The notes under the pieces are model-generated. The model searched no databases and had not been told where the DNA came from. It saw only the letters and a program-made list of their open reading frames with translations. A DNA stretch of 64,000 nt, taken from NCBI GenBank assembly GCA_016708875.1, contig JADJFA010000018.1, forward strand, positions 28,113 through 92,112, in the 5' to 3' direction. Shown here piece after piece: positions 12,859 to 60,874 of the stretch (position 1 is the first letter of the stretch; every line of letters begins with the position of its first letter). Origin of the DNA: Lewinellaceae bacterium. Its GTDB lineage: Bacteria; Bacteroidota; Bacteroidia; Chitinophagales; Saprospiraceae. The translations under genes were made by a program, and so were the position numbers.

Positions 12859-12945
12859 GGCCACGGATTGCACGGATTAGACACGGATTTTTATTCAAAT
12901 GGGGAAAATCCGTGAATCCGTGTCTAATCCATGCAATCCGTGGCC
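12859..12945. repeat. Post-gene hairpin with tandem-octamer arms (CACGGATT family).
   Basis: 'ggccacggattgcacggattagacacggatttt ...loop... aaaatccgtgaatccgtgtctaatccatgcaatccgtggcc'. It starts 7 nt after the stop at 12852. The arm is 3 x 'cacggatt'. Confidence 0.9.
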
Positions 12946-13033
12946 CATTCTACGACAAGATGGCCCTTCAAAATTCTAATTCCACCAAAAGCAGTATTTT
13001 CGCCGCTTAGCAAAACAAAAATCTTCTTGCATA

Positions 13034-16000
13034 GTGGAATACAGACCGAGCGAAATCGAGCCTAAATGGCGACAGTGGTGGATAGAAAACAGCACTTACA
13101 GGGTTGAAAATCAGGGGATTAAGCCGAAGTATTACATCCTCGATATGTTTCCTTACCCAAGTGGAGCAGGGCTGCACGTGGGTCACCCTTTGGGCTATAT
13201 TGCCTCCGACATTCTTGCACGTTACAAGCGCTTGCGGGGTTTCAACGTGCTTCACCCAATGGGCTTCGATTCTTTCGGATTGCCCGCCGAGCAGTACGCC
13301 ATCCAAACGGGGCAACATCCAGCCATCACTACCGAACAGAATCTTGCCCGTTACCGCGAGCAACTCGGTAACCTTGGCTTTTCCTTCGATTGGAGTCGGG
13401 AAGTTCAAACCTCCAACCCTGCTTTTTACAAGTGGACCCAGTGGATTTTTATCCAACTTTTCAACCATTATTATGACCTTGAAGCTGACAAGGCATTGCG
13501 TATCAGCGATCTGGAACGCCGTTTCACCCAATCTGGCAATGCTGGCCTTCGCGCTGTTTGCGACGATGATACGCCCGCCGTTTCAGCAGCAGAGTGGAAT
13601 GCCTGGAGCAAGCAGGAGCAACAGCAGTTCCTCCTCAAGTACCGCATCACCTTCCCGGGTGAAGAGTATGTAAACTGGTGTTCAGCGCTCGGCTCGGTTC
13701 TTTCTAACGATGAGGTGAAAGACGGTGTGAGCGAACGCGGCGGCCACCCTGTGGAGCGCAAACTCATGAAACAATGGGTAATGCGCATCACCGCATACGC
13801 CGAACGCCTGCTCGAAGGCCTGAATACCATTGACTGGCCCGAATCTATCAAGGAACAACAGCGCAACTGGATTGGAAAATCGGTGGGCGCATCGGTCAAA
13901 TTTCAGGTGGAAGGCTTTGAAGATTTGTACATAGAGGTGTTCACCACACGGATAGACACGATTTATGGTGTGACATTCATGGTAATTGCACCAGAATTGG
14001 ATCTGGTTAAAACACTTTGCACCAGCGAACAGCGCACCGAGGTGGATGGTTACATAAAATGGACCGCCGCCCGCACCGAAATCGAGCGCATGGCCGATAC
14101 CCGCAAAGCCACGGGGGTTTTCACAGGTTCATACGCGATCAATCCTTTTACGGAAGAGCGTGTGCCGATTTGGATTGCAGACTATGTGCTGGCGGGATAC
14201 GGCACTGGCGCGGTTATGGCCGTCCCTTCTGGCGATCAGCGCGACTGGAATTTTTCCCAGGAATTCAATCTACCCGTAGTGCCCATTTTGGACAGCCAAA
14301 AAGATTTAGATACCGCTGCCGATCCGAGCAAAGAAGGCCAATATATCAACTCCAAGTTAATCAATGGCATGCGGTACGCAGAAGCTGTGCCAATGCTCAT
14401 TCAATGGCTTGAAGAAAAAGGATTGGGCCGTGGAAAAACACAATACAAGCTCCGCAATGCTGTTTTCAGCCGCCAGCGTTACTGGGGCGAACCAGTTCCT
14501 GCGCTTTGGGAGGACGGTGTGCCCTATTTGATTGACGAGAAAGACCTTCCGCTCGTGCTGCCTTCCGTGGATAAGTATTTGCCTACCGAATCCGGTGAGC
14601 CACCACTCGCCCGAGCCAAAGGGTGGAAATACGAACTCTCCACCATGCCCGGTTGGGCAGGATCTTCCTGGTATTTCTACCGTTACATGGATCCGCACAA
14701 CGATCAGGCGTTTTGCTCGGAAGAAGCCATGGACTATTGGCAAAGGGTGGATTTCTACATCGGTGGCTCGGAGCACGCTGTGGGCCACTTGTTGTACAGC
14801 CGTTTTTGGAACCACTTTTTGTACGACCTGGGCTTGGTGCCGCATCGGGAGTTTGCCCAGCGTTTGGTGAACCAAGGGATGATCCAGGGCCGCTCCAACT
14901 TTGTCTACAGGGCTAAGGAGCGTTTTTTTGAGGAATACCTGATGCTCAAAGTGCTCAAACCTTTCTTTGCCGATGAGGGTCCCATCCACATTTCTGGGCC
15001 TGAGTTTGAAGAAGAAATCAAGTACGATTTTGCGTTCGAGATCAACAATCTCGTTATTGAAGTCACTTCCATTAAGCAATTGGACAAAATTGAGCGTATC
15101 CGCCAAACAGCCCAGGAGGATGGCAAACGGCTCATGGTGCTCTACACCGAAGAACTTACAGATCAAATCAACGAGCCGGAAGCCATTGCTGAAAAGGTAC
15201 GCGAAGCGCTTGCAAGTCGGGAGGATTTTATCGTAACATCAAATCAGCCCAGCGCTGAGCAACTGTTTGTTTCGCATAGCCTTTTGTACAAATACAGCCC
15301 GGAGGTGGTTACCAAACTTCATGTGGACGTGAATCTTGTAGACAACGATGTGCTGAATTTGGAAAAAGCCCGTGCAACGCCGCAGTTTGCCAACTCAAAT
15401 TTCAAACTTGACACGACGGGAAAGTATTCCTGCTCTTGGGAAGTGGAGAAAATGTCGAAATCCAAGTTCAATGTTGTCAACCCTGACGATATTATTGAGG
15501 AACATGGGACCGATTGTTTTCGGATGTTCGAGATGTTCCTTGGCCCTATCACCGACGCAAAGCCTTGGAATACAAAGGGAATAACGGGCGTGAGCGGCTT
15601 TTTGCGAAAATTTTGGAGCATGTTTTTTGAGGCTGAAAACTTCCGCGTCACCGATGATGCGCCTAGCCGCGATGAGCTCCGCATCCTCCATACCTGCATC
15701 AAAAAAGTGAGCGACGATATCGAGCGGATCAGTATGAATACCTGTGTCAGTCATTTCATGATTGCCACCAACGAGCTGCGTGCATTGAAATGTTCCAAAC
15801 GCGCAGTGCTGGAGCCTTTGGTTGTTCTTATCGCGCCCTTTGGCCCGCACATTGCAGAGGAACTCTGGAATCGGCTCGGGCACAACACTTCTGTTTGTGA
15901 TGCAGCATGGCCGATTCTCAACGAGGAAAACCTCAAAACAGACACGGTCAATTATCCTATCCAGATCAACGGTAAACTCCGCGCCAACATCGAGCTTCCC

Positions 16001-16129: not shown

Positions 16130-16130
16130 T

Positions 16131-16206
16131 GGGGGGGGTGTTGTTTTTAGGGGGGTGTGGGGGGGAGTTTTGCTGCCGCGGGCGATTCCCCCCGCCCCGC
16201 GCCCGG
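16131..16206 (+). other. G-run / C-run low-complexity tract just after the leuS stop.
   Basis: G8 (16131-38), G6 (16150-55) and G7 (16159-65), then C6-G-C4-GCGCCC (16188-16204), followed by A-rich 'aaaaaaaagaaaaccaaaaaaa'. Confidence 0.9.
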
Positions 16207-16267
16207 ACCAGAAACCAAAAAAAAGAAAACCAAAAAAACCCAACATAGAACATCCAATTTTTGGACA

Positions 16268-17509: not shown

Positions 17510-18265
17510 ATGTACAAAAACAAAAAAGTTGTTGTCGTGCTCCCGGCATATAATGCCGCCCTCACGCTCGAAAAAACATACCGGGAAATCCCCTTTGAAT
17601 TGGTGGACGAGGTCATCCTATGCGACGACCACAGCAAAGACAATACGGCAGCACTCGCCCTTTCGCTGGGCATCCAGCACGTGATTGTGCACGAAAAAAA
17701 CACAGGCTACGGCGGCAACCAAAAATCGCTCTACAACAAGGCCCTCGAAATCGGTGCGGATATCGTGATCATGCTCCACCCCGACTATCAGTACACGCCA
17801 AAACTCATCCCGAGCATGGTCAATATCATCGGCGAAGAACTCTACCCGGTGGTACTCGGCTCCCGCATTCTCGGCATGGGCGCACGCAAAGGCGGGATGC
17901 CGATGTACAAATACATTGCCAATCGGTTCCTCACATTCGTGCAGAACACCTTGATTCACTACAAGTTATCGGAATACCACACCGGCTACCGGGCCTTCAG
18001 TCGCGAGGTGCTGTTGGGCATAAAATTCAACCAGAACTCCGACGATTTTGTGTTCGACAACGAGATGCTTTCCCAGATTGTCTATGCGGGTTTCGACATT
18101 GGCGAGGTCACTTGCCCCACCAAATACTTCGCAGAAGCCTCGAGTATTAACTTTAGCAGGAGCATGAAATATGGCCTTGGTGTGTTGCGCGTGTCGTTCT
18201 GTCACTGGCTTCAGCGAATGGGGATTTGGAAGTTTGGGATGTATCCGGAAATAGTTTCAAGTTAA
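17510..18265 (+). CDS. Family 2 glycosyltransferase (polyprenol-phosphate sugar synthase-like).
   Basis: 'VVVLPAYNAALTLEKT...VILCDDHSKDNT...GYGGNQK...IVIMLHPDYQY...' is the GT2 DxD/ED architecture. The start abuts the stop of the GT87-like gene (17509/17510). Confidence 0.85.
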   Translation: MYKNKKVVVVLPAYNAALTLEKTYREIPFELVDEVILCDDHSKDNTAALALSLGIQHVIVHEKNTGYGGNQKSLYNKALEIGADIVIMLHPDYQYTPKLIPSMVNIIGEELYPVVLGSRILGMGARKGGMPMYKYIANRFLTFVQNTLIHYKLSEYHTGYRAFSREVLLGIKFNQNSDDFVFDNEMLSQIVYAGFDIGEVTCPTKYFAEASSINFSRSMKYGLGVLRVSFCHWLQRMGIWKFGMYPEIVSS

Positions 18266-18311
18266 AAGTGGCAAGTTTCAAGTCGCCTTCGCGTCTAAAA
18301 CTTGCCACTTT
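18265..18311. terminator. Bidirectional hairpin between convergent genes, containing a CAAGTTT heptamer.
   Basis: 'aaagtggcaagttt caagtcgccttcgcgtct aaaacttgccacttt' has a 14-bp stem. It overlaps the stops of the GT2 gene (18265) and the DUF2721 gene (18278). Confidence 0.6.
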
Positions 18312-21125: not shown

Positions 21126-23349
21126 ATGAAAAAACTACTTTTCTCCTTCCTCGCCCTTTGCATCGCCGCAAGCCTCTCCGCTCAGGGAATGTGGCTCCCT
21201 TCCTTGCTTGAAAAACAGAACGAAAAGGACATGAAATCGCTCGGCCTGAAACTTTCAGCCGACGATATCTACCATCCTGTGGATCCCAGTATCAAGGATG
21301 CTATTTGTCAATTCGACGGTGGCTGCACGGGTGAAATGATTTCTCCTGATGGGCTGCTGCTCACCAACCACCACTGTGGTTATGATGCCATCCAGCAACT
21401 TAGTACGCTTGAAAACAATCTCCTCGAAAACGGACATTGGGCCAAAGACCGCGCTTCCGAGCTTCCGGCTAAAGACGTCACCGCCGTGTTCGTCACCCGG
21501 ATGGAAGATGTGACCATTGTGGTTTTGCAAAACGTGACGGAAAACATGGGCGAGCGTGACCGTCAGTCGCAGATTGACAAAAACATCGCCAGCCTGAAAA
21601 CAACGACCAAAAAAGAAAAGTGGGAAGAAGTTTCGGTGCGCCCGTTTTACAATGGCAACCAATACTATTTGTTTGTAACGCAGACGTTCAGTGATGTGCG
21701 TTTTGTAGGAGCTCCGCCCAGCAGCATTGGAAAATTCGGCGCAGATACCGACAACTGGGTATGGCCACGGCACACGGGCGATTTCTCGATGTTCCGGGTA
21801 TATGCCGACAAAGACAACCATCCTGCGGCATACTCAAAAGACAATGTACCGTACCGTCCGCGGCATTTCCTGCCCATCTCGCTTGATGGGGCAGAAGAGG
21901 GTGATTTCACGATGGTGTACGGCTTTCCTGGCGCGACCAACGAGTACCTGACCGAAGCGGCGGTCCGACAAACAGGCGAGGTGCTCGACCCGGCAAGGGG
22001 TGGCCATTCGTGACCGCGCTCTCAAGATTATGGACGGTTTTATGCGCAAAGACCCGGCGGTGAAAATTGCCTACTCCTCCCGTTACGCCGGCATTGCCAA
22101 CGCCTGGAAAAAATGGCTGGGCGAAATGCAGGGTTTGAAAACCTACGGAGCCCTTGAAAAAAAACGAGCATACGAAGCCGAATTCACCCGCAGAATACAG
22201 CAAAATCCGGATTGGAACATCCGCTGGAAAAACCTGTTGCCCCGTCTCAATCAACTTTACACAGAGATTGAGCCCTATGCTCTGGCACGCGATTATTACT
22301 TGGAAACAATGGTGCGCAACAATCAGATTTTGGCGCAGGCTGCCAATTTGCAACCGCTGGTAGAAGCCAACGAAGGGACGATTGAAAACCGGAGAAAAAA
22401 CATTGCCGAAAATCTTGAATATTTCTACAAAGACTATCGACCTGAAGTGGACGAGGCTGTGCTGGCTGCAATGCTTGAGATGTACGGCGAAAATATGAAA
22501 CCCGAATGGGGAGGCGCCGATGTGAAGGCAATGGCAAAGGATTTGGGAGGTTATGCCGACTTTGCTAAAGCGATTTTTGAAGGCAGTGTCCTTGCTAATC
22601 GCGAAAAAATGATGGCGGTGCTGGCCCGAAAGCCCGACGAAATTTTCAACGACCTGACGAATGACATAGCCTACAATCTTTGGGAAAGCCTTCAAGGCTA
22701 TTATGTCGGAAAGGTTCAGCCTAAGCTTCAGGAATTGCAGCCCCAAATCAACCTGCTTCAACGCCAATATATGGCCGCCCAAATACAGGTATTCAAAGAA
22801 AAGCGCTTTTTCCCGGACGCAAACAGCACCCTTCGCCTCACTTATGGCAAAGTGCGTGGCTACTCCCCCCGAGATGCCGTGCAGTACGAATACCAAACCG
22901 ATCTTGATGGCGTGATGGAAAAATACATCCCCGGAGATTATGAGTTCGATGTACCGCAAAAACTCATCGAACTCTGGAAGTCAAAGGATTACGGCCAGTA
23001 TGCCACTGCTGATGGGCGTTTGCCTGTGGCGAGTATCGGTACCAACCATACTACGGGCGGGAACTCTGGTTCGCCGGCAATTGATGCAAACGGGAACCTG
23101 GTCGGACTTAATTTTGACCGCGTATGGGAAGGCACCATGAGCGACCTGAACTACGACCCCGCCATTTGCCGCAACATCATGGTGGATGCCCGGTATATTC
23201 TTTTCATCGTGGACAAGTTTGGCGGCGCAGGGTATTTGCTGGATGAAATGAAGCTGGTAAAAAGGGAAGAAGAAGCGGAAAAAGTGATTGCGCAGCAACA
23301 CCAATCACCAATTCACCAATTCACCAATTCACCAGTCACTAACCCGTGA
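21126..23349 (+). CDS. S46 family dipeptidyl-peptidase (DPP7/DPP11-like), with the frame broken once.
   Basis: Signal 'MKKLLFSFLALCIAASLSAQGMW'. 'GGCTGEMISPDGLLLTNHHCG' carries the catalytic His and 'TTGGNSGSPAIDANGNLVGLNFD' the catalytic Ser. ORFs 20973..22013 and 22000..23349 join as 'VLDPAR|VAIRDRALKIMD' if the G4 run at 21997-22000 is read as G3. Confidence 0.85.
23299..23339 (+). repeat. Tandem octamer (c)ACCAAT(t/c)C x4, plus a degenerate fifth copy.
   Basis: 'caccaatc accaattc accaattc accaattc accagtc'. It encodes the peptidase tail 'HQSPIHQFTNSPVT'. No inverted partner is visible. Confidence 0.9.
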
Positions 23350-28000: not shown

Positions 28001-29618
28001 CGGCACGGCTACAGCCAACCCGACGGGCGGAACGGGGGCATACAGCTACCTCTGGAACGGCGGCGCCACCACCCAGAGCATCAACAACCTCGTACCTGGA
28101 ACCTACACGGTGGTTGTTACGGATGAAAATGGTTGTACCTCAGAGCAAACGGTGGAAGTATCTTCCTTCCTGTGTGCCATTTCTTCACAACAAACAATCG
28201 TGGACGTGAGCTGCGCGGGTGCGGCCAATGGTTCGGTTACAGTCTCCCTCACGGGCGGAACTGCACCGTTTACATATGCCTGGAGCAATGGTGGTACTAC
28301 TGCGACCATTTCCAACCTCGAAGGCGGTACCTACACCGTCAACGTATTGGATGCAAACGGATGCGACTTCAGCGCCAACGCTGCTGTTGCTGAACCTGCT
28401 CCATATTCTGCCTGGGATGTTCAAACCACTAACCCACTTTGTCCGAACGATGCAACGGGTTCGGCTACGGCCTCCATTACTGGCGGTACCCAGCCATACA
28501 CATTCCTTTGGAGCAATGGTGCGGTGGGCAATACACTTTCCAATGTGCCAACAGGGACGTATACCATACAGGTGACTGACCAAAATGACTGTCAGTCCAG
28601 CACTTCTGTATCGCTCACGTCAACTGACATCGAGGCTCCGACGGTTACCGCCCAGAATGCGACCCTTGCCCTCAATAACAACGGTACGGTTCAGGTGACA
28701 CTGGCTAATCTCTCGGCTCAATTTAGTGACAACTGCGGCATTGCCAGCACGAGCATCCTTCCACAAAATTTTGATTGCCAACAACTTGGCGAACAAACCG
28801 TGACAGTTATAGTAACGGACCTTTCAGGCAATACTGCTGCGGCAACTGCATTGGTAAATGTGGTGGACAACATTGTTCCAGTGTTGACCTGCCCTTCTGA
28901 TATCGTGGCTTGTTCTTACAACAACGTAGTAAACTATGCATCGCCCGTGGCAGAGGACAATTGCCTTTTGGCTGGCAACGGTCAATGGGTAATAGACGGC
29001 CCGGCGAGTGGTTCGATATTCCCCGAAGGGACAACCACCGTGACCTATACTTACACGGACGCAAGCGGCAATGCTGGAAATTGTGCCTTCAATGTCAGGG
29101 TAACGAGCGCAGTAGTGTTCACCAGCGTGAACGTGAACAACGATGTGAACGGTCAGCAGGTCGGCTCTATCGACATCACTGTAGAAGGTGGCACCGGCCC
29201 ATTCCTGTATGAATGGACCGACGAAAATGCCAACGTGATTGCCAACACAGAAGACGTGACGGGCCTCGGCGAAGGCATTTACCGTGTGCAGATTACCGAC
29301 GCGAACGGTTGCATTTACGCCGAGGAAGACATCAAAATGCAAAATACCAGCAGCGCAAAGGAACCGGCTTGGCTCACAGGCATTAGCCTTCAGCCCAACC
29401 CGACAAGCGGCTTCACCAACGTTGTTTTCAGTCTTCCGGTGGCTTCCACTTTGGAAATCTCCCTGATTGACGCAACAGGTCGAATCCTCTTAACCGACAT
29501 CAGCGAGCAGGAAAGCGTGGTCAGAATTGACTGCACAAACCTGCCTGGCGGGGTGTATTATCTGCGTTTCCGCACCGGTCAGGAAGTGGGTGTTCGGAAG
29601 TTGGTGGTTAGTAAGTGA
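25043..29618 (+). CDS. Large T9SS adhesin: N-terminal thioredoxin-fold domain, Ig-like repeats, ~10 SprB repeats, 2 HYR domains and a T9SS CTD. The frame is broken once.
   Basis: Signal 'MKKQLLLLVFLMMGWHSAYAQ'. Trx motif 'FLDVSATWCGPCWGYH'. SprB units such as '[53 protein letters not shown]'. HYR 'APTVTAQNATLALNNNGTVQV...' and 'VPVLTCPSDIVACSYNNVVNYASPVAEDNC...TYTYTDASGNAGNCAFNV'. CTD 'ISLQPNPTSGFTNVVFSLPVASTLEISLIDATGRIL...GVYYLRFRTGQEVGVRKLVVSK'. ORFs 24920..26710 and 26619..29618 join as 'ASPTF|SWTGPNGYTSSLQSP' if the AA at 26639-40 is read as A. Confidence 0.85.
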
Positions 29619-29731
29619 TTAGTTACAAGTTTCAAGTTTCAAGATTCAAGTTTCAAGTTTCAAGTTTCAGGCGCCTGCTCGGAGATACCGGGTGGGCGCT
29701 TGAAACTTTTAACTTGAACTTGTAACTAATT
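29618..29731. repeat. Hairpin with tandem CAAGTTT heptamer arms (REP-like) between the adhesin stop and the RAYT stop.
   Basis: Left arm 'attagttacaagtttcaagtttcaagattcaagtttcaagtttcaagtttcag' holds ~6.5 heptamers. Centre: 'gcgcctgctcggagataccgggtgggcgc'. Right arm 'ttgaaacttttaacttgaacttgtaactaat' holds ~4 units. The outermost 'ttagttacaagtt/aacttgtaactaa' pair perfectly. Confidence 0.9.
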
Positions 29732-30392
29732 ACCCCGCCTTCACAGGATTATGGAGGATGTACTTGACTATCTTTTCAAACTCGGCGGCTTCCTTTACCC
29801 GAAAATCAAAAGTCCGCTCGTGCCAAAATTTCCCTTCCATTTTCACGCTTCCATTTTGGGTATGTTTTTGAAATGTTTTAGGGTCAATGTGCTCTCCTAA
29901 TTGTTGCAATGCTTTTTTCAAGGGCGCTTCCGTGGCATGTTGAATTTCTCCTACAATGTCGCGCAGTGGTTGGTATTGATAACTTTCAAGATCTTCCAAG
30001 ACTGGCGTGTCGGCCATTGAGCTGTGCAAATCCAACAGCAAATGGACGTGGTTGGGCAGGATGGAATAGGCCAGCAGTGCATAATCCGACCCATCGCGAC
30101 GAAGTATTTCGTCCGCAAGGATTTTGGCCAAAGCCGGTTCACGAAGGTAGGTATGGCCGTATTTTTCCAAGTCCAGTGCATCATCATAGCGAGCGAAAAG
30201 GCGTTTGCGGGCTTGCCTCAATTGTGCTGTACGATCAGGATGTTGGGCGAATTTGAGCTGTTTGCTGTAGTATTGAAGTGCAAGATTTTGCCCAAAACTC
30301 TCTGGCAGGGCATTCCGCAGCCGCAGGGTGACAAAGAAAACGCCTTCGAGTGAGGAGGGTAAGGATAGGGTAGGGGACTTGAAGGAATTCAT
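29730..30392 (-). CDS. REP-associated tyrosine transposase-like protein (IS200/IS605 TnpA-type HUH/Y1 enzyme).
   Basis: 221 aa from the ATG at 30392; the ORF extension to 30530 looks non-coding. N-terminal strand 'GVFFVTLRLRNALP', HUH motif 'ILPNHVHLLLDL' and C-terminal Tyr motif 'KYILHNPVKAG'. It is single-copy with no IS ends of the usual kind, but repeat hairpins sit on both sides. Confidence 0.7.
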   Translation of the reverse strand: MNSFKSPTLSLPSSLEGVFFVTLRLRNALPESFGQNLALQYYSKQLKFAQHPDRTAQLRQARKRLFARYDDALDLEKYGHTYLREPALAKILADEILRRDGSDYALLAYSILPNHVHLLLDLHSSMADTPVLEDLESYQYQPLRDIVGEIQHATEAPLKKALQQLGEHIDPKTFQKHTQNGSVKMEGKFWHERTFDFRVKEAAEFEKIVKYILHNPVKAG

Positions 30393-30413
30393 TGGTGCGG
30401 TGGGTTTTGTATT

Positions 30414-30421
30414 CAAAAATA
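30414..30421 (-). promoter_or_regulatory. Candidate -7 box (TATTTTTG) for the RAYT-like gene.
   Basis: Fits TAnnTTTG, 21 nt upstream of the ATG at 30392. Confidence 0.35.
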
Positions 30422-30538
30422 AGGGAAAAAATGTGACATCCGTTCTCGAAGACCTGAACATCTTTGAGATGTGGCTGCGGTGAGGAAGCTGCTGCTTAAA
30501 AAGTGAAATGCATGGCAGAAAAATCTCCATTTTGCACT

Positions 30539-30546: not shown

Positions 30547-30563
30547 TAAAAAAATACTCAACC

Positions 30564-30893
30564 ATGACAGCATTGGAAAGGGCCACCGCAATATTGCCCG
30601 ACATGTCGCAAAGCGAGATAGCACAATTGGTTCAAAGGGCAGCCAGCAGAATCTCTGAAGATTTCCCGGGCATTGAAAAAACTCCGGGCGTTTGCGGAGG
30701 AAGCGCGTGCATTATTCGCACAAGGATTCCTGTTTGGTCTATCATCGAATACATTCAGATGGGCGTTGGAAAGGAGAAAATGCTCCAAAACTTCCCTTCT
30801 CTTCGTGCCCAAGATTTGGCAAATGCCTGGGCATATTACGATGCCAATAAGGAAGAAATTGACAGTGAAATCAAAGAAAACAACGAAGACTGA
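30564..30893 (+). CDS. DUF433 domain protein (antitoxin-like HTH).
   Basis: 109 aa. 'PGVCGGSACIIRTRIPVWSIIEYIQMGVGKEKMLQNFPSLRAQDLANAWAYY' is the DUF433 core pattern. Confidence 0.7.
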   Translation: MTALERATAILPDMSQSEIAQLVQRAASRISEDFPGIEKTPGVCGGSACIIRTRIPVWSIIEYIQMGVGKEKMLQNFPSLRAQDLANAWAYYDANKEEIDSEIKENNED

Positions 30894-30967
30894 ACCTTTA
30901 TTAAAGTCCTTCTTCAATCTGGAGAAGATGTCTCCAGCCAATTAATTCGAGTCTATCGAGAGCAGAG

Positions 30968-30992
30968 ATAGTTTTGAACTTGAAACTTTCAA
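30968..30992. repeat. Solo copy or remnant of the AAACTTG/CAAGTTT heptamer repeat.
   Basis: 'tagttttgaacttgaaactttcaac' resembles the right arm of the 29618-29731 hairpin ('cttgaaacttttaacttgaacttg'). Confidence 0.5.
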
Positions 30993-31256
30993 CTACTCCC
31001 CACTCTTCTTCCACTTCTCCATCTGCTCCCGCGCATTATCCGATAACACCGCCGGGTCATATTCCAGTTTGGAAAGAATGTCCAGCAGCGTGTTGATCCT
31101 GGCTTCCACGTCAAAAAACTTGTTGACCACGACCACACGGCGGCTTTCCACGAGGCAGTAGCCACTCTGGAAACTACCCTTCTCGTAACGGACAGTGTAG
31201 TCGAGCTCGTCGAAGACGTCTTCAATTTTTTTGAGGGTTGTTTGCGTGTAGCGCAT
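30993..31256 (-). CDS. Small conserved hypothetical protein.
   Basis: 87 aa from 'MRYTQTTLKKIEDVFDELDYTVRYEKGSFQSGYCLVESRRVVVVNKFF...'. No recognised domain. Confidence 0.45.
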   Translation of the reverse strand: MRYTQTTLKKIEDVFDELDYTVRYEKGSFQSGYCLVESRRVVVVNKFFDVEARINTLLDILSKLEYDPAVLSDNAREQMEKWKKSGE

Positions 31257-32882: not shown

Positions 32883-33022
32883 AAAATTAAACCGCAAAAT
32901 GTAAAACCGGAGAACAGGAAAATGTAAAACCAAACGACGGAAACCCAAGCAGTAAGAACAGTTTAACCCCTCTTAGTTTTAAATTTTGCGGTTCTCCGGT
33001 TTTACATTTTGCGGTTTAAATT
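32883..33022. repeat. Post-gene long hairpin (AAAATGTAAAACC / CCGCAAAAT motif arms).
   Basis: 'aaaattaaaccgcaaaatgtaaaaccggagaac ...~65 nt... gttctccggttttacattttgcggtttaaatt' has ~32-bp near-perfect arms. The spacer carries an extra 'aaaatgtaaaacc' copy. Confidence 0.9.
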
Positions 33023-33550: not shown

Positions 33551-33660
33551 AATTACGATTTTGGAATTACGATTTACGATTTTGTTGATCCGAAAAGGCA
33601 TGATTCTAACCTTCTTCGGATCAAAAAATCGTAAATCGTAAATCGTAATTCCAAAATCCA
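33551..33660. repeat. Post-gene hairpin with tandem ACGATTT heptamer arms.
   Basis: 'ttttggaattacgatttacgattttgttgatccgaa ...loop... ttcggatcaaaaaatcgtaaatcgtaaatcgtaattccaaaa'. It starts 4 nt after the ogt stop. Confidence 0.9.
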
Positions 33661-33946
33661 AAACCGTTTCTCATGAAAGTTAAACCGTTCCCTCAAAAGA
33701 GAAAATTGCTGTATCCTTGCCAAAAATTTTCAACTAGTTTTGTCGAACCTTTTTGAAGAATTATTTTCTTTAAAAATTGAAAATCAATTGTTTAGCGAAT
33801 TAGTTCGGGGTTTAATCAAAGAAGGCAAACCCTCAAAATCTATTTGAGATAAAATCTGGCCTTTTATTTGTTGAGGCCGTTTTTCAGCCCCGTCCAAACC
33901 AACCATACCCCCCGAACCAACTAACCGGAAACATCCCAACCGCTCA

Positions 33947-39600: not shown

Positions 39601-39697
39601 AACCTCATAGCCTTTATTAAACCACATAGTACACATAGTTTACAATTAGCAATTGTTCGATTTTCTAAACTATGTGTACTATGTCAACTATGTGGTT
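39601..39697. repeat. Post-gene hairpin with tandem CACATAGT octamer arms.
   Basis: 'aaccacatagtacacatagttta ...loop... taaactatgtgtactatgtcaactatgtggtt'. An additional 'aacctcatagcc' unit lies upstream. Confidence 0.9.
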
Positions 39698-40554: not shown

Positions 40555-40590
40555 AGAAGTGACGCTTTTTCAAAAAGTGTCACTTCTTTT
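40555..40590 (+). terminator. Rho-independent terminator.
   Basis: 'agaagtgacgcttttt c aaaaagtgtcacttct' followed by 'tttg', 45 nt after the stop at 40510. Confidence 0.5.
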
Positions 40591-42568: not shown

Positions 42569-42573
42569 AAACA

Positions 42574-42785
42574 TGAGTCATCCCGAATTTTGATCCAATT
42601 GGTTTTGATTGCTGATTGATGAGTACATGAATGATGATTGTTGATGGAATGGTGGATTGATAATGGCCGATGTGCCGCCATCGTCAATAATTACATCGTC
42701 CCTTTACATCAAAAATCATCATTCATGTACTCATCAATCGTCAATCAATCAAAATCAGAGAAATCTCAAAATTCGGGATGACTCC
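42574..42785. mobile_element. Nested-palindromic MITE-like element, copy C (a diverged family member).
   Basis: Outer arms 'gagtcatcccgaattttga'/'tcaaaattcgggatgactc'. Inner arms 'ttgattgctgattgatgagtacatgaatgatgattgttgatgg'/'catcaaaaatcatcattcatgtactcatcaatcgtcaatcaatcaa'. By eye the inner arms are largely identical to the arms of copies A and B. Confidence 0.8.
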
Positions 42786-42894
42786 TGTTTCATATCCCTC
42801 CCTTTTTTTGCGAATAATGGCAAAGACCCAACTTAAGCGGGCAGCCTAAAGTAGAAATTTGTACTCTTGTACCATAAACCGGCTGCAATTGAAC

Positions 42895-48826: not shown

Positions 48827-48833
48827 GTGGGTG

Positions 48834-49009
48834 ATTTTGATTGATGATTGATGAATACATGAGTGTTGATTTTTGATGGAATTGAAGATTGGGGTATTTA
48901 CGATGTACGATTTAGCCAACTTATCGTGATAAATCATCCATAAAACATCAAAAAATCACCCATTCCATCAACAATCAACACTCATGTATTCATCAATCAT
49001 CAATCAAAA
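48834..49009. mobile_element. Nested-palindromic MITE-like element, copy A.
   Basis: Arms 'ttttgattgatgattgatgaatacatgagtgttgatttttgatgga' / 'tccatcaacaatcaacactcatgtattcatcaatcatcaatcaaaa' match at 45/46 positions. An ~85-bp core lies between them. Confidence 0.9.
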
Positions 49010-49054
49010 TAGCCCTGCCCAAATATCTAAATATCCCAACAACTCAATCTCCCT

Positions 49055-50995: not shown

Positions 50996-51023
50996 ATCCT
51001 GAATTTTACGCATTCTGTGGTTT

Positions 51024-51199
51024 GTTTGATTGATGATTGATGAATACATGAGTGTTGATTTTTGATGGACATGGGTGATTTTTGATTTTTTATGGATGAT
51101 TTATCACAATGAGTAAGCTAAATCATCCATCGTAAATACCCCAATCTGCCATGTCCATCAAAAATCAACACTCATGTATTCATCAATCATCAATCAAAA
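51024..51199. mobile_element. Nested-palindromic MITE-like element, copy B, with its core inverted relative to copy A.
   Basis: Perfect ~50-bp arms 'ttttgattgatgattgatgaatacatgagtgttgatttttgatggacatgg'/revcomp. The reverse complement of the core ('cagattggggtatttacgatggatgatttagc...gtgataaatcatccataaaaaatcaaaaatcac') aligns with the core of copy A ('agattggggtatttacgatgtacgatttagc...gtgataaatcatccataaaacatcaaaaaatcac'). Confidence 0.9.
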
Positions 51200-51235
51200 T
51201 AGCCCAACAATTGCAACCGTTTTTAATATCTACCT

Positions 51236-53747: not shown

Positions 53748-53755
53748 TATTAAGC

Positions 53756-54867
53756 ATGGAACAAGATGCTGTCATCCAGTGGCTGTTGAGTGGGGATATT
53801 TCCATTCAATATCAGGTTTATCGCGACTTGCTGTGCACAGACAAGCCGGATTTTCAGCATCTGATAAAAAGTGAAGGCTGGGGGAATCAATTACTTTCCA
53901 AAAGGTTGGAAAACGGTCACTGGGGGCAACGTTTTTATCAACCCAAATGGACTTCTACCCACTACACCTTGCTTGATTTAAAAAACCTGGCGATTGATCC
54001 AGAGATACCGTGCATTCAGGAAACGCTGAAATTGATTTTTCGGGAGGAAAAAGGCCCCGATGGGGGCATCCGGCCAATAGGAAGTACAATGAAAAGCGAT
54101 GTTTGCATCAATGGCATGTTTATAAATTATGCCTGTTATTTTCAGGTGGAAGAAAGCGACTTGAATTCTGTGATAGATTTTTTGCTATCCCAGCACATGA
54201 AAGATGGTGGTTTCAATTGTTATTCAAATCGAAAAGGCTGCGTCCACAGCTCCTTGCATACTACCATATCAGTGCTTGAAGGATTTTAGAATACGCCCGC
54301 AATGGATATACCTACCGATTAAGTGAACTGCTTTCCGCAGCAGCAGCCTCCCGGGAATTTATCCTTATGCACCGTCTGTATAAGTCCGATAAAACAGGCA
54401 ATATTATAGATCCTAAAATGACAATGCTTTCTTATCCCTGCCGATGGCGGTATGATATTTTGAGGGCTTTGGATTACTTTCAAAATGCCGGTATCGCCTG
54501 GGATCAAAGGATGGAAGACGCCATAGAATTGCTTTTGAAAAAACGATCCAAAGAAGGCACTTGGCCGCTCCAGAACAAACATCCCGGCCAGACGCATTTT
54601 GAAATGGAAAAACCCGGGAAGGCAAGCAGGTGGAATACATTGAGAGCCTTGAGGGTCTTGAAAAGGTATGAAATTCTGCTAAAAGGTCTGAACAACCGGG
54701 TGCGGCGGGGGGGGGGTGGGGGGGGGGTTCCGGGGGGGGGCGGCCGGCGTGGGCGTCCATTTATATGGCCGGTAGTGGGCGTTTGGGATCCCTTGATGCC
54801 GTTTTATATTTTCATTGCTACAGGCGGGTTTATTTTCCTGTGGATTTATCTAAAGAACTTGGAATAA
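53756..54867 (+). CDS. Hypothetical alpha/alpha-toroid (prenyltransferase/terpene-cyclase-like repeat) protein. The frame is broken once and the 3' end runs into a poly-G tract.
   Basis: 'NGHWGQRFYQPKWTSTHYTLLDL', 'KDGGFNCYSNRKG' and 'KEGTWPLQNKHPG' are toroid-repeat-like. ORFs 53756..54289 and 54367..54867 join as 'SVLEGF|LEYARNGYTYRLSELL' if the T4 at 54284-87 is read as T5. The true stop is uncertain because of the G-runs at 54707-54740. Confidence 0.55.
54698..54753 (+). other. Extreme G-tract (G10-T-G10-TTCC-G9...).
   Basis: 'cgggtgcggc gggggggggg t gggggggggg ttcc ggggggggg cggccggcgtggg'. Confidence 0.9.
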
Positions 54868-54869
54868 GT

Positions 54870-54877: not shown

Positions 54878-54883
54878 CTTTTG

Positions 54884-55984: not shown

Positions 55985-56019
55985 ATATTTTACTTTTTAA
56001 TAAAATAACGATAGGCACC

Positions 56020-56127
56020 ATGATATTTGCAATTGTCATGTTGCATTTACTCGCAGGTTTTGGATATGCATTGTACAAAATCCAGTTTGGCTCTGATAAA
56101 AAATCGGCCCCAAAATCTGAGCAATGA
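56020..56127 (+). CDS. Candidate 35-aa single-TM micro-protein, absent from the ORF track because it is under 60 aa.
   Basis: 'MIFAIVMLHLLAGFGYALYKIQFGSDKKSAPKSEQ*'. Its stop overlaps the permease start (caATGA at 56124-56127). It lies between the adaptor and permease genes. Confidence 0.4.
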   Translation: MIFAIVMLHLLAGFGYALYKIQFGSDKKSAPKSEQ

Positions 56128-57219
56128 ACCTCAACCTAATCGCAGATATCGCAAAATCACTCCTCTTGGCGCGTTGGCGGCAATCTTTAGTCGCAGCCAT
56201 TGGTGTGACGTTCAGCATTACTATGTTCATCACCTTGTTGGGCTTTATGAATGGGCTAAACGACCTGCTGGACGGTCTGATCCTGAACAGAACGCCGCAC
56301 GTCCGCCTTTTCAATGAAATAAAGCCCAATCCCAACCAGCCGGTCAACCTATCCAGCGATTTTCAAGGTGGCCACAACTTCATTCAGTCCATTAAATCAA
56401 GTGGCGGGAGACTTGAAATTCACAACGGTGGAGCTATACTCGAAGCCCTTAAAGTGGATCCGCGCGTTTTGGGCATTTCGCCAAAAATAAGTTCCCCTGT
56501 GCTATACAATGCGGGTACTATTGACATAACGGGTGCGGTCAGTGGCATTGACGTAATCGCCGAAAGTGCACTGTTTTTTTTTAAAGATTATGTTCGGGAA
56601 GGCAACCCGCTGGATTTAAAAAACGTAAGCAACAGCATTATCCTGGGCAAAGGAGTAGCCGAAAAATTGTTGGCCGAGATTGGCGATATGGTGCAGGTAA
56701 CCACTTCCAAAGGCGACCGATTGCCCCTGCCGGTGGTCGGTACTTTCCAGTCAGGGATTGCAGATTTTGATAAAGTACAAAGTTTTGCATCCATTGCAAC
56801 GGTTCAAAAATTGCTTGGAAAACCAAACACCTATATCACAGACATCCAAATCAAACTGAAAGACCTTAAAACCGCCCCCGTCGTCGCCAAGGAATATGCC
56901 CGACTCTTCCAGGCGGATGCAGAGGATATTCAGACGGCAAATTCGCAGTTTGAGACAGGCAGTTTTATCCGCACCCTCATTTCCTATGTGGTTGGGATCG
57001 TGTTGTTGATCGTGGCCGGATTCGGCATTTTCAATATTCTCAACATGATGATCTACGAAAAAATGGATACCATCGCCATCCTGAAAGCCACGGGTTTTTC
57101 TGGCAGTATTTTACGTCATCGGGATTATGTTTTCGCTGATCACCACCTATTTGGCTGGTTATTTCCCTGCTAGAAAGGCAAGTAAAATTGACCCAGTTAT
57201 AATTATTAGAGGGAAATAA
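56124..57219 (+). pseudogene. ABC transporter permease (FtsX/MacB-LolE family) with an apparent internal deletion and frame change near 57105-57115.
   Basis: N-terminal TM 'WRQSLVAAIGVTFSITMFITLLGF', a MacB-PCD-like periplasmic domain, TM2 and 'MDTIAILKATGFSG'. The canonical C-terminus 'VFYVIGIMFSLITTYLAGYFPARKASKIDPVIIIRGK*' is present only in another frame. The TM3 region (~40-50 aa) is absent. Confidence 0.7.
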
Positions 57220-57362
57220 AACACATAGGTATTGAACCACAAAAGGCACATAAGGACACAAAAGAACATATAGTCCTTAATTTGAACGCATTATGTTGAA
57301 TGAGGATTCCATTTGACCTTTGTGTCCTTATGTGCCTTTTGTGGTTTAATACCCTAAGTGTT
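57220..57362. repeat. Intra-operon long hairpin (CACAAAAGG/CACATAAGG nonamer arms).
   Basis: 'aacacataggtattgaaccacaaaaggcacataaggacacaaa ...~55 nt... tttgtgtccttatgtgccttttgtggtttaataccctaagtgtt'. It lies between the permease stop and the ATPase start. Confidence 0.9.
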
Positions 57363-57374
57363 TGCTCTATAGAA

Positions 57375-58050
57375 ATGACAAAAACTGTTCTCCAGTCCTC
57401 GAATATAAACAAAAGTTTCAAGGATCCGATTGTAGTCCCGGTATTGAAAGACATCAGTTTTTCCGTGGATCAAGGTGAATTTGTTGCCGTCACGGGCAAA
57501 TCCGGTTGCGGGAAGTCCACGTTATTGTACATCCTATCTACCATGGACACCGATTACGAAGGAGATTTGCGGATAGATGGCGATCTGATGCGCGGCAAAA
57601 CCGAGGCAGAATTAGCGCGCATCCGAAATGAAAAAATCGGCTTCGTTTTCAATTTCATTACCTGCTCAACGAATTCACAGTCCTGAAAAACGTAATGCTG
57701 CCCGGCTTAAAACTCCAGAAATTTTCGGCAGCCGAAGTAGAACACCGCGCCATGGAACACCTCAAAACCTTGGGAATCGAAGCACTCGCTTTAAAAAAAG
57801 CCAATCAATTGTCGGGCGGTGAAAAACAACGGGTAGCCATCGCGCGTGCCTTGATCAACGACCCCCTGATTATCATGGGCGATGAACCGACAGGCAATCT
57901 GGACAAAAAAACAGCGACATTGTCTTCGATATCTTCAAGCAACTTTGTGAAGAATTTAAACAAACCTTGCTCATCGTAACCCACGACCAAAGTTTCGCCG
58001 AAAACACCCACCGGATCATTGAAATGGAGGACGGGCGGATTATTGGGTAA
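57375..58050 (+). CDS. ABC transporter ATP-binding protein (MacB/LolD-like). The frame is broken twice.
   Basis: Walker A 'GKSGCGKST', Q-loop 'IGFVF(Q)[14 protein letters not shown]', signature '[15 protein letters not shown]', Walker B '[12 protein letters not shown]' and H-loop 'LLIVTHD'. Breaks lie at ~57650 (C versus CC) and at the A7 run 57905-11. Confidence 0.85.
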
Positions 58051-58063
58051 AAACACTAAAGGT

Positions 58064-58142
58064 TTTCACACAACGCCACAACGGCACAACGTTTTGCTAA
58101 TCAATAATTTATAACGGTGTGTCGTCGTGGCGTTGTGTGAAA
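58064..58142. repeat. Post-gene hairpin with tandem CACAACG(N) octamer arms.
   Basis: 'tttcacacaacgccacaacggcacaacgtt ...loop... aacggtgtgtcgtcgtggcgttgtgtgaaa'. Confidence 0.9.
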
Positions 58143-58165
58143 TCAACTACCACTTACTAAAAAAC

Positions 58166-59542: not shown

Positions 59543-59551
59543 CTTGTTTTT

Positions 59552-59620
59552 GCCACGAATTGCACGAATTTTCACTAAATAGTTCAAGTTTTTTTAGTGT
59601 AAATTCGTGCAATTCGTGGC
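59552..59620. repeat. Post-gene hairpin with tandem CACGAATT octamer arms.
   Basis: 'gccacgaattgcacgaattttcactaaa ...loop... tttagtgtaaattcgtgcaattcgtggc'. The unit is a 1-nt variant of the CACGGATT unit. Confidence 0.9.
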
Positions 59621-59652
59621 TATATTACCCTAATAATAGCACAACAATAACC

Positions 59653-60765
59653 ATGGCAGAAAAATCAGCACAACTACAACTGGAAGTAGACACCGCCTTC
59701 CTCTACGAAAGCCTTGCAAATATTCAGGAAGATGCTTCCACAGCCGAAGTATTGCGGGAGTTGGCGGGCATCGAAAGAAGCCATGTGGAACATTTTCTGG
59801 CAAAAATGCGAGAAACAAAGCCCGATTTTCAGCTGCCACCGCCAAGCCTACGAGCCAGGCTCCAATTTAAACTTGGCGGTATTTTCGGGTACGATTTTAT
59901 CATCGCCAATCTCTCGTCCGTTGAACGGCACATCGCCGTATCTGCCATTGAGGAAAAACGCAAGCACGGGGAAAAGCCCAGTGGTTTTGAGCACAATCAC
60001 CTCAAAATCCTGGAATCCCTCTCACACAATTCTACCGCCAATGTAAGCGGTGGTTTTTTGTCCAAAATGGAAGGAAGGCACAAATCAGTGGGCGGCAATG
60101 CGTTGCGGGCTGCGGTGCTAGGCGCGAACGACGGACTGTTGTCCAATATGAGCCTCGTGATGGGTGTGGCGGGCGCGGCGGTTGCAAATGACACGATTTT
60201 ACTGACTGGCTTGGCGGGCCTTTTGGCAGGCGCTATTTCGATGGCCTTAGGCGAATGGCTGTCGGTGCAGAGTTCGAGGGAACTGTTTATGAATCAAATT
60301 GCACTGGAAGCCGAAGAATTGGAAGCCTCTCCAGAGCATGAAGAATTGGAACTGGCGCTCATTTATCAGGCGAAGGGCATGGAAAAATCAAAGGCTCAGG
60401 AAATGGCGCATAAAATTATGTCCAACAAAGAAACGGCCCTTGAAACCCTTGTACGCGAAGAACTGGGCATTGACCAGGCTGAATTGGGCGGCTCAGCCTG
60501 GGAGGCGGCGTTGACTTCTTTTGTTTTGTTTGCAATGGGCGCCATCATCCCGGTCATACCCTTCTTTTTCACCAGCGGCAGCGAAGCCATTTATATCAGC
60601 CTGGTTCTCAGCGTGATAGGACTGTTCGGCATCGGCAGCGCGACCTCCCTTTTCACAGGGCGGACGGTTTGGTTTTCAGGCATCCGGCAGGTGTTGTTTG
60701 GATTGGTGGCGGCAGCCGTCACGTACGGCGTGGGACATTTGATTGGCGTTTCGATAGCGGGATGA
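59653..60765 (+). CDS. VIT1/CCC1 family iron/manganese transporter with an N-terminal ferritin-like domain.
   Basis: 'LRAAVLGANDGLLSNMSLVMGVAGA', 'ISMALGEWLSVQSSRE' and C-terminal TM segments. The N-terminal 'FLYESLANIQEDASTAEVLRELAGIERSHVEHF' is a rubrerythrin-like helix pair. Confidence 0.8.
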   Translation: MAEKSAQLQLEVDTAFLYESLANIQEDASTAEVLRELAGIERSHVEHFLAKMRETKPDFQLPPPSLRARLQFKLGGIFGYDFIIANLSSVERHIAVSAIEEKRKHGEKPSGFEHNHLKILESLSHNSTANVSGGFLSKMEGRHKSVGGNALRAAVLGANDGLLSNMSLVMGVAGAAVANDTILLTGLAGLLAGAISMALGEWLSVQSSRELFMNQIALEAEELEASPEHEELELALIYQAKGMEKSKAQEMAHKIMSNKETALETLVREELGIDQAELGGSAWEAALTSFVLFAMGAIIPVIPFFFTSGSEAIYISLVLSVIGLFGIGSATSLFTGRTVWFSGIRQVLFGLVAAAVTYGVGHLIGVSIAG

Positions 60766-60778
60766 TCTGAGAGGGTAA

Positions 60779-60874
60779 GAACACGGATGACACAGATGGG
60801 ACACGGATTGCACGGATTTTATCAATCAAAAAAAATCCGTGCAATCCGTGTCCAATCCGTGTCATCCGTGTTCC
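60779..60874. repeat. Hairpin with tandem CACGGAT(N) arms between convergent genes.
   Basis: 'gaacacggatgacacagatgggacacggattgcacggatttt ...loop... aaaatccgtgcaatccgtgtccaatccgtgtcatccgtgttc'. It shares 'ggattgcacggatt' with the 12859-12945 hairpin. Confidence 0.9.

Follow-up and report, generated by a model that had tools for sequence, protein, structure and literature searches.

Repetitive extragenic palindromes (REPs), together with the bacterial interspersed mosaic elements (BIMEs) and the REP doublets forming hairpins (REPINs), are short, dense extragenic palindromes that lie mostly at the 3′ ends of genes, belong to several sequence families per genome, leave no target-site duplication, and occur in nested or clustered arrangements. 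We found the same traits in a set of long intergenic hairpins in a 64-kb stretch of Lewinellaceae bacterium DNA (contig JADJFA010000018.1; the whole stretch is referred to as the window), in which one hairpin adjoins a single-copy, vertically inherited, and syntenic gene for a HUH protein resembling the REP-associated tyrosine transposases (RAYTs). REP families are lineage-specific, in contrast to one unit from which the window hairpins are built, the octamer CACGGATT of what we call the CACGRATT family, which occurs across many phyla. In addition, the classical GTAG REPs present in other loci that we fetched look different from the tandem-arm hairpins.

Two described groups of repeats are close to the window elements. 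The TnpA_REP proteins of subclass 2.6 are found mostly in Bacteroidetes and have at their flanks secondary structures termed "atypical", which lack GT[AG]G (Quentin et al. 2018, PMC6006769). Table S1 of that study lists the atypical REP CTTTGCGGGCACGGATTGCAAATCCGCGCAATCG of Flavobacterium johnsoniae beside a subclass 2.6 TnpA_REP gene (PMC6006769), and this entry is a single-unit CACGGATT hairpin, GGCACGGATT-GCA-AATCCGCGC. Short tandemly repeated repetitive sequences (STRRs) and long simple sequence repeats (LSSRs) are intergenic 7-nt arrays, also present in Bacteroidetes, whose copy number changes by one unit, and the CAAGTTT, ACGATTT, and TGATTGA arms of the window are of this type. Among the long simple repeats of bacteria, heptamers are the most frequent (Mrazek 2007, as cited in PMC4679880). 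However, those repeats have been described as one-directional, the TAACTGA repeats of Beggiatoaceae, Cyanobacteria, and Bacteroidetes forming 169 direct sets and one indirect set (PMC4679880), whereas in the window the arrays are paired in inverted orientation and give long near-perfect hairpins, and the spacers of the octamer family vary.

A first-pass annotation of the window, which had drawn attention to the hairpins, did not recognize them as a described family. This view stands for the tandem-arm architecture and the cross-phylum spread but needs qualification for the intergenic heptamers (STRR/LSSR; PMC4679880) and for the atypical REP of F. johnsoniae (PMC6006769). Full-text literature searches for 17-mers and for both octamers (CACGGATT and CACGAATT) returned nothing relevant. 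As far as we found, neither the tandem-arm architecture nor its spread across phyla has been described, and the single-unit F. johnsoniae hairpin is the sole trace in the literature.

Other systems share fewer traits with the window hairpins. Miniature inverted-repeat transposable elements (MITEs) are likewise noncoding elements (70 to 220 bp) with inverted arms, multiple copies (here in the TGATTGA family), presence/absence polymorphism, and nested insertions. The window elements differ from MITEs in having no target-site duplication at the one resolvable site and in that the whole element is essentially one hairpin; the window showed no insertion sequence whose ends match, although no dedicated test for a parent insertion sequence was made. 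Intrinsic terminators are also stem-loops right behind stop codons, but the window stems are 20 to 50 bp long and not G+C-rich, with loops of 11 to 80 nt and no U-tract, and such hairpins occur in divergent spacers too. DNA uptake sequences (the DUS of Neisseria and the USS of Haemophilus) are short genome-enriched motifs that often form hairpins behind genes as inverted pairs. Unlike these genus- or family-specific motifs, the CACGGATT octamer spans phyla and is iterated two to four times per arm.

Tandem-unit hairpins in the window

We searched the window with an ungapped hairpin finder, using 20 dinucleotide-preserving shuffles of the window as a control; hairpin density was counted within this one window. 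With stems of at least 14, 16, and 20 bp, we detected 18, 14, and 12 hairpin loci, respectively, compared with shuffle means of 2.35, 0.75, and 0. All 12 loci at the longest stem threshold lie in intergenic spacers, as expected of high-density extragenic palindromes of the REP kind. The excess of 12 loci over 0 at this stem length supports the first-pass proposal of structured intergenic elements, probably genome-wide in extent, that are not due to chance. A separate inverted-repeat search and the raw sequence revealed long inverted repeats at every site that the annotation had named, with the ten sites it listed lying at or within a few bases of where it had put them.

The arms mostly consist of tandem copies of a 7- to 10-base unit that is not palindromic by itself. 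Inside the arms, Tandem Repeats Finder reported CACGGATT(N) at 12862 and 60834, AGTTTCA (7.0 copies) at 29621, TTACGAT/AAATCGT at 33553 and 33626, AACTATGTG at 39668, CACAAAAGGA at 57238, CACAACGC at 58069, and a TGATTGA unit in three "MITE-like" copies (42605-42748, 48829-49015, and 51012-51211). The proposed tandem build of the arms is correct for most sites, but the hairpins at 18265 (stem of about 14 bp) and 30968 (about 6 bp) are small and loosely tandem. Head-to-tail intergenic arrays of a 5- to 11-nt unit, the hallmark of STRRs, are present at 29621, 33553, 33626, 58069, 60834, and other positions. We also confirmed the reported asymmetry of the arms at 29618, where seven perfect heptamers face about four degenerate ones. 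The slippage or active expansion proposed from this asymmetry is supported by the seven perfect heptamers in one arm and by relatives in which a one-sided array lies beside the same core hairpin. Folding of the hairpins as single strands, which had been suggested as a check, gave ΔG values of −25 to −71 kcal/mol and z-scores of −6 to −14.

We positioned 13 sites against a hand-curated gene map of the window. At 11 of the 13, the hairpin starts 0 to 16 nt past a stop codon, within the 0 to 30 nt originally claimed; the sites at 39620 (48 nt) and 42605 (36 nt) fall outside this range. Between genes on the same strand, the hairpin is nearer to the upstream stop than to the next start at eight of nine sites. 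The added remark that these are stops of the + strand carries no strand information, since a palindrome is identical on both strands, and nearly all window genes are on the + strand.

Two arrays without an inverted partner were also observed. One, of CACCAATT (4.6 copies, with a layout of CAC plus 5 nt), occupies 23299-23339 in the last codons of the open reading frame (ORF) 22000-23349. The other, of roughly 9-nt units (ATTGATTCG, 4.9 copies), occupies 61932-61975 near the start of a minus-strand ORF.

Gain, loss, and dispersal of hairpins in related genomes

We compared the window with orthologous spacers in relatives, another check that had been suggested, and found whole hairpins present or absent with sharp edges (fetched loci carry L numbers, and their gene calls are longest-ORF approximations). 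The 113-bp ACGATTT hairpin behind the MGMT gene is present in the window and in L004 but not in L002 or L001, the last being a metagenome contig that lacks the hairpin although its MGMT protein (171 aa) is identical. Without the hairpin, the sites have the sequences TAAAGAAAAAAAACCG and TGAAGAATTTAAACCG; with it, the sequence is TAAAG[113 bp]AAAACCG. No target-site duplication was found at this position, the single filled/empty site resolved to the base (window and L004 versus L002 and L001). The beta-CASP/VIT1 spacer is 110 nt long in the window, where it holds the CACGAATT hairpin, and 10 nt long without a hairpin in the 92%-identical orthologue L265. At the macB/ATPase junction, where the window carries the hairpin at 57228, the genes overlap (ATGA) in two orthologues and are separated by 23 nt in a third. 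The annotation had placed this hairpin (as 57220) within an operon; it does lie between macB and the ATPase gene, but the operon is degraded in the window.

In this operon (56124-58050), macB, which encodes a MacB-type permease, has a 142-nt internal deletion relative to three orthologues that shifts the frame, and the frameshifted ABC ATPase gene is broken up into the ORFs 57300-57686 and 57695-979. The genes of this efflux operon look like a pair of pseudogenes, or else these are sequence errors.

Different families occupy the same spacer in different relatives. In the ATP-cone/MgtC spacer, the window has a TGATTGA element where L265 has one of the ACGATTT family, and in the PdaC/MGMT spacer, L002 has a TGATTGA element where the window and L004 have an AAACCG... 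element. Homologous copies were also found dispersed among loci. The ACGATTT element behind MGMT in the window aligns over its full length, inner core included, with an L265 copy behind the ATP-cone gene, a nonorthologous position. The family of the 32884 palindrome is represented at the same site in L004 and at another locus in L265, the TGATTGA family has one member in L002 besides its three window copies, and CACATAG(G) hairpins related to the 39620 element occur in L002, L004, and L092 (Saprospiraceae). Tandem-unit hairpins are frequent in the window, L002 (where they lie in two divergent spacers), L004, and L265 and are rare or absent in 20-kb samples of L266-L268, L261, and L005, which marks an expansion within a narrow lineage.

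We further observed nesting and stepwise growth. The TGATTGA element at 42605 sits at the center of a larger palindrome (42573-42790), and outer CACGAATG arms enclose inner CACGGATT arms in L090, L095, and L108. In the spacer between the SprB-like and RAYT-like genes, a G+C-rich core hairpin is common to all genomes compared and forms a classical terminator with a T-tail in L005. L005 and L002 have heptamers only on the SprB side of this core, whereas the window has its seven perfect CAAGTTT copies on that side and an inverted, degenerate set on the opposite one.

At L001 42-127, a tRNA-Tyr gene stands upstream of MGMT instead of the PdaC-like gene, and only the right arm of a 32884-type palindrome is left, indicating a rearrangement breakpoint within that palindrome.

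An octamer family shared with other phyla

A pattern scan of one genome per species for CACGGATT-N0-3-CACGGATT-N3-33-AATCCGTG identified at least 117 loci with CACGGATT hairpins, compared with about 0.5 matches expected in random sequence by our own estimate. These loci belong to Acidobacteriota, Verrucomicrobiota, Chloroflexota, Bacteroidota (including Bacteroides and Flavobacteriia), Planctomycetota, and Calditrichota, and further carriers among the loci listed are Spirochaetota, several Proteobacteria, a Planktothrix chromosome, and others. Isolate genomes and megabase contigs are included. Two to three units per arm were present in 163 of the 177 arms listed, with spacers of 0 to 3 nt, mostly 1 to 2 nt, between units and a resulting period of 9 to 10 nt. 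The spacers are complementary across the two arms and show compensated changes between species, while the loops are variable and A/T-rich. Other hairpins at these loci often have the same build from related units (CGCGGATT, CACGGAG, CACGAAT, ACGATT, CGTGAAA, and CACATAGG). No recurrent neighboring gene was found among the 117 loci listed.

In viral contigs, the forward pattern was found at 10 loci for CACGGATT and 8 loci for CACGAATT, as opposed to 0 loci for each of two scrambled octamers of the same composition. The reverse arm order was found at 0 loci for either octamer (18 forward versus 0 reverse overall). Hairpins of CACATAGT were likewise found at 0 loci in viral contigs, and this family seems lineage-restricted. 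In a much larger metagenome collection, the reverse arm order is common, mostly, among the matches listed, as loop-less palindromes centered on ...CCGTGGCCACGG..., and part of these matches are junctions of tandem hairpins. Thus, the arm polarity is a strong preference and not a rule. Judged by these pattern counts, the CACGRATT octamer is shown to be sequence-specific and to recur in the same architecture in many phyla. To keep one octamer across phyla despite the drift of spacers and loops would require a sequence-specific factor. The annotation had regarded all of the hairpins as one shared system; instead, two things were lumped, the cross-phylum CACGRATT octamer family and lineage-restricted heptamer and other families.

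Loop-less reverse palindromes of the form (AATCCGTG-N)2-3 GC (CACGGATT-N)2-3, with the center GTGGCCAC, were observed in L133, L139, L148, L152, L159, L164, L167, and others. They are common in soil metagenomes, and none was seen in genome contigs, a sample selected on the forward form. We also observed head-to-tail repeats of a whole CACGGATT hairpin and its spacer with a period of about 105 bp, a BIME-like or satellite-like array, at 1-950 of L110 (at least five copies, in a Bacteroidales metagenome-assembled genome) and 5700-6100 of L104 (three copies, in a Thermoflexales metagenome-assembled genome).

Several other readings were rejected. An apparent TA target duplication in Bacteroides copies (TAGGCACGG...CCGTGCCTA) may equally well be an extension of the palindrome, and other taxa lack it. 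A sigma-54 promoter (GGCACG...TTGC) would have a GG-to-GC spacing of 8 nt, not 10. There are resemblances to a CsrA-type GGA motif, a parS half-site, a DnaA box, an integration host factor site, and a tRNA T-arm, none of which fits all units.

Terminator features and strand asymmetry

A run of four T's follows 12 of 110 CACGGATT hairpins, and a run of four A's follows 14 of 110. A terminator scan of 45-64 kb of the window called no tandem-arm hairpin, in agreement with the first-pass observation that most sites lack a T-tract. The combination of G+C-rich stem, short loop, and U-tract is absent from the hairpins except for the 29621 core in relatives and a trio of Acidobacteriaceae loci considered in the Discussion. 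Rfam covariance models at the gathering score gave 0 matches in the window and in 16 loci.

By crude ORF calls, the spacers that hold CACGGATT hairpins are co-directional in 57 cases, convergent in 14, and divergent in 15. When every hairpin of the fetched loci with a stem of 18 bp or more is counted, there are 57 convergent versus 38 divergent spacers. In co-directional contexts, the sense-strand mismatches consist of 69 G·U versus 72 A·C, and there is no sign in these mismatches of selection for a sense-strand RNA helix. Conservation of the arms relative to gene direction was 19 against 18 (counts of 19/18/20), with neither arm better kept; as a palindrome has no strand, this count speaks only to which arm is better kept. 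The hairpins are probably DNA-level elements that are best tolerated behind genes, with some of them co-opted.

Classical intrinsic terminators with a G+C-rich stem, a short loop, and a T-tail are found at 11124-11160 and 40555-40590, indicating that this genome uses the canonical form beside the long palindromes.

The RAYT-like gene

The protein encoded at 29730-30437 matched the NCBIfam model REP_Tyr_transpos with an E value of 8e-11 and 42 bits, against a curated cut-off of 80, and gave a weak match to Pfam Y1_Tnp. A sequence search of the PDB with this protein gave no meaningful match. The gene is single-copy and syntenic across Saprospiraceae/Lewinellaceae genomes with its motifs intact, and it is convergent with the SprB-like gene in genomes whose copies are 90%, 85%, 63%, and 54% identical. 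The protein is a candidate mobilizing enzyme of the hairpins, and we regard its link to the elements as a lead and not as a result.

A 127-aa minus-strand ORF without a family match (30558-30941) lies between the RAYT-like gene and a 104-aa ORF. It is missing at that place in L004 and L261, where the small ORF is followed directly by the RAYT-like gene, which indicates an insertion beside the transposase gene. Distant homologues of the RAYT-like protein occur amid clusters of ordinary short REP-like palindromes in L262 (5770-5960), L263 (9850-10900), and L264 (9900-10720); the palindromes of these three loci are CCCGAAGCTAGAGCTTCGGG, CAGGCTNNAGCCTG, and GGTCGAGNNC...GNCCTCGACC.

Features of the window

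The coordinates of the hairpins and of the RAYT-like gene are collected in Table 1. Pfam domains found in the window proteins are SprB repeats, Por_Secre_tail, and sigma-54; together with source names, they place the window in the Saprospiraceae/Lewinellaceae of the phylum Bacteroidota. The beta-CASP protein of the window has a 100%-identical counterpart in a Lewinellaceae metagenome-assembled genome.

Table 1. Hairpins and associated transposase-like gene in the 64-kb window (ΔG in kcal/mol)
Feature	Position	Strand	Description	ΔG	z-score
CACGGATT-unit palindrome	12858..12946	.	3 units per arm, complementary spacers G and AGA; 5 nt past stop of AprA-like methyltransferase, 87 nt ahead of LeuRS	−64.1	−12.0
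Small hairpin, about 14-bp stem	18266..18311	.	AAAGTGGCAAGTTT / AAACTTGCCACTTT, weakly tandem; between convergent GT2 and DUF2721 genes, overlapping both stop codons	−24.8	−9.2
Long palindrome	29621..29727	.	Fills convergent SprB-like/RAYT-like spacer (111 nt); conserved G+C-rich core hairpin between 7 perfect CAAGTTT and about 4 degenerate inverted copies	−54.6	−10.0
RAYT-like HUH/Y1 transposase gene	29730..30437	-	Motifs PNHVH, FWHE, YILHNPVKAG		
Short palindrome, about 6-bp stem	30960..31000	.	TTGAAAGTTTCAA, CAAGTT-like units, weak member; just past stop of 104-aa minus-strand ORF		
Palindrome with 50-bp arms	32884..33022	.	Units of about 22 nt (AAACCGCAAAATGTAAAACCGG...); fills PdaC-like/MGMT spacer	−56.3	−8.7
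ACGATTT-heptamer palindrome	33551..33667	.	Inner core GATCCGAA...TTCGGATC; 3 nt past MGMT stop	−50.7	−11.9
CACATAGT-unit palindrome	39620..39697	.		−29.1	−6.0
Nested palindrome	42573..42790	.	Outer arms AAACATGAGTCATCCCGAATTTTGA / inverse around TGATTGA-unit element 42605-42748		
TGATTGA-unit palindrome, MITE-like copy 2	48829..49015	.	2 nt past upstream stop		
TGATTGA-unit palindrome, MITE-like copy 3	51012..51211	.	ATP-cone/MgtC spacer		
CACA(A/T)AAGG-unit palindrome	57228..57353	.	Between macB and its ATPase gene	−68.1	−12.5
CACAACG-unit palindrome	58064..58142	.	ABC ATPase/beta-CASP spacer	−43.8	−8.1
CACGAATT-unit palindrome	59552..59620	.	beta-CASP/VIT1 spacer	−41.0	−11.5
CACGGATT-unit palindrome, 42-bp arms	60779..60873	.	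Outer units CACGGATG/CACAGATGG, inner units CACGGATT; 13 nt past VIT1 stop	−70.7	−13.9

Two further repeats were observed in the window. Most of the ORF 149-4915 (1588 aa) consists of a 474-bp tandem repeat at 1-4308 (9.1 copies, 88% identity), which implies a protein of about nine 158-aa repeats. At 54703-54747, runs of 9 to 10 G's (GGGGGGGGGGT repeated over about 45 nt) lie within the 54367-54867 ORF region; this tract could be prone to slippage or could be an assembly problem.

Discussion

We give roughly even odds to the proposal that the hairpins are small noncoding palindromic repeat elements of the REP/REPIN/MITE kind that spread to new spacers and grow in place. Such elements would settle in short intergenic spacers, mostly right behind stop codons, and would be gained and lost as whole units. 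Among the options that the annotation had offered, a REP/REPIN-like nature fits best with the presence/absence polymorphism, the dispersed copies, the lineage-specific abundance, and the RAYT-like gene. Growth could occur if slippage lengthens one arm and intrastrand template switching then copies units into the other arm; alternatively, insertion of one palindrome at the apex of another could produce nested or iterated arms. Spread may take place via single-stranded hairpin intermediates handled by an HUH/Y1 enzyme, with the RAYT-like protein encoded at 29730-30437 as the candidate. The lack of target duplications is consistent with this route, which would leave none, but it is equally expected from template switching. 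Once in 3′ untranslated regions (UTRs), the stable hairpins may incidentally block exonucleases or read-through, and we observed no sign that they are selected for this effect.

Several observations weigh against the REP/REPIN/MITE proposal. A GT[AG]G (or CGTC) tetranucleotide is absent from the foot of every window hairpin. Their arms are tandem nonpalindromic 7- to 10-nt units, unlike the two inverted palindromic REPs of a REPIN, and CACGGATT copies share units but not the spacers or loops that recent REPIN copies have in common. Orthologues of the RAYT-like gene are flanked by varied hairpins (CAAGTTT, or CACATAG in L002 and L004) or by none (L005 and L261), and because L005 and L261 keep the gene with few hairpins, the gene does not predict the elements. 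No RAYT homologue was found near the 117 CACGGATT loci listed except in L086, where it is accompanied by ordinary GTAG REPs, although this absence is weak evidence because RAYTs are single-copy. Most other REPs of subclass 2.6 are of a different type with a GCTRG foot (PMC6006769), so that the F. johnsoniae hairpin may be a bystander. Finally, a trio of Acidobacteriaceae loci (L008 2444-2501, L017 1877-1935, and L091 about 1930-1990) keeps a three-unit CACGGATT hairpin between the same two genes, whose proteins are 85 to 93% identical. The units of this hairpin have 0 substitutions in the sense-strand 5′ arm, compared with about 7 in those of the 3′ arm. Changes in its spacers are compensated, and behind it lie a T-rich tail and a TATAAT-like box. 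The trio hairpin looks to be under functional constraint at that locus and may be a co-opted terminator.

This trio is also part of the case for an RNA-level function, in which the hairpins would act in 3′ UTRs as U-tract-independent or factor-dependent terminators or as barriers to 3′ exonucleases and the octamer would be the site of an RNA-binding protein. The placement of the hairpins shortly behind stop codons and nearer to the upstream gene, the extreme stability of the stems, and the surplus of convergent over divergent spacers in all fetched loci agree with such a function. However, we consider it doubtful, because the CACGGATT hairpins are followed by T runs no more often than by A runs, the terminator scan called none, neither a G·U excess nor an arm asymmetry was detected, and CACGGATT hairpins occupy divergent spacers as often as convergent ones, and two hairpins of L002 lie in divergent spacers too. 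Moreover, near-identical strains lack the hairpins, and one hairpin lies in a degraded operon whose orthologous genes overlap. The missing U-tract, the missing sense-strand G·U bias, and the divergent spacers also leave the classical terminator role that the annotation had listed without support. A different origin, growth of small hairpins in place by slippage and quasi-palindrome template switching as a local mutational by-product without transposition or function, would account for the SprB/RAYT series from one-sided to two-sided heptamers, for the perfect and degenerate CAAGTTT arms at 29621, for the one-armed arrays at 23299 and 61932, for the prevalence of heptamers among bacterial simple repeats, and for a small TTCAA-T-TTGAA palindrome that L266 has where the 57228 hairpin sits. 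We nevertheless judge it unlikely as the whole explanation, given the full-length ACGATTT homology at nonorthologous loci, the TGATTGA copies in the window and L002, and the different families found in the same spacer of relatives. In addition, the units are not arbitrary, since real octamers and not scrambled ones recur in viral contigs, the same octamer is found in many phyla, and simple slippage would not give CACGGATT spacers that vary from 0 to 3 nt.

The regularity of the octamer could instead reflect iteron-like arrays of double-stranded DNA-binding sites for a conserved protein, an 8-bp motif every 9 to 10 bp, or about one helical turn, in two inverted sets. The period, the two to three units in nearly all arms listed, the strong conservation of the octamer beside variable spacers and loops, and the preferred polarity in viral contigs are as such arrays would have them, but we find this explanation very unlikely. 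A pure array of double-stranded sites, another option in the annotation, would not require the spacers of the two arms to be complementary, and their complementarity with compensated changes between species points to intrastrand pairing or copying rather than mere repetition of a site. The absence of a recurrent neighbor gene among the 117 loci listed, the common reverse polarity in metagenomes, and the dispensability of the elements between strains also speak against it. An assembly artefact is barely credible. The window does come from a Lewinellaceae metagenome-assembled genome, and chimeric assembly can yield palindromes, but the same hairpins occupy the same sites in independent assemblies (L004 from JGI and L002 from NCBI), isolate genomes and megabase-scale contigs also contain CACGGATT hairpins, and the hairpins are internal to contigs and respect gene boundaries.

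For the octamer family, we tentatively raise the possibility, which we do not favor, that the CACGRATT tandem-arm palindromes are a distinct, sequence-specific class of element with its own machinery, common to phyla that are far apart (Bacteroidota, Acidobacteriota, Verrucomicrobiota, Chloroflexota, Planctomycetota, some Proteobacteria, and Cyanobacteria). The octamer every 9 to 10 nt in both arms would then be the recognition module of a conserved putative trans-acting factor, perhaps a widespread single-strand DNA enzyme of the HUH type or a host protein that binds hairpins. Such a factor would amplify units within an element and seed new copies, a mode of propagation unlike REPIN transposition.

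If the hairpins are palindromic repeat elements as proposed, elements that annotation ignores would shape much of the "empty" DNA between genes in several little-studied phyla, which dominate soil, sediment, and gut metagenomes. Such elements break short-read assemblies, alter operon spacing between otherwise identical strains, and put 30- to 50-bp perfect hairpins into 3′ UTRs. The SprB/RAYT spacer provides a natural example of how a long palindrome may be built, from a core hairpin through a one-sided heptamer array to a two-sided palindrome. The octamer conserved across phyla points to a recognizable putative trans-acting factor, and if this factor were found, either the REP/RAYT paradigm would reach beyond Proteobacteria or a second system would come to light.

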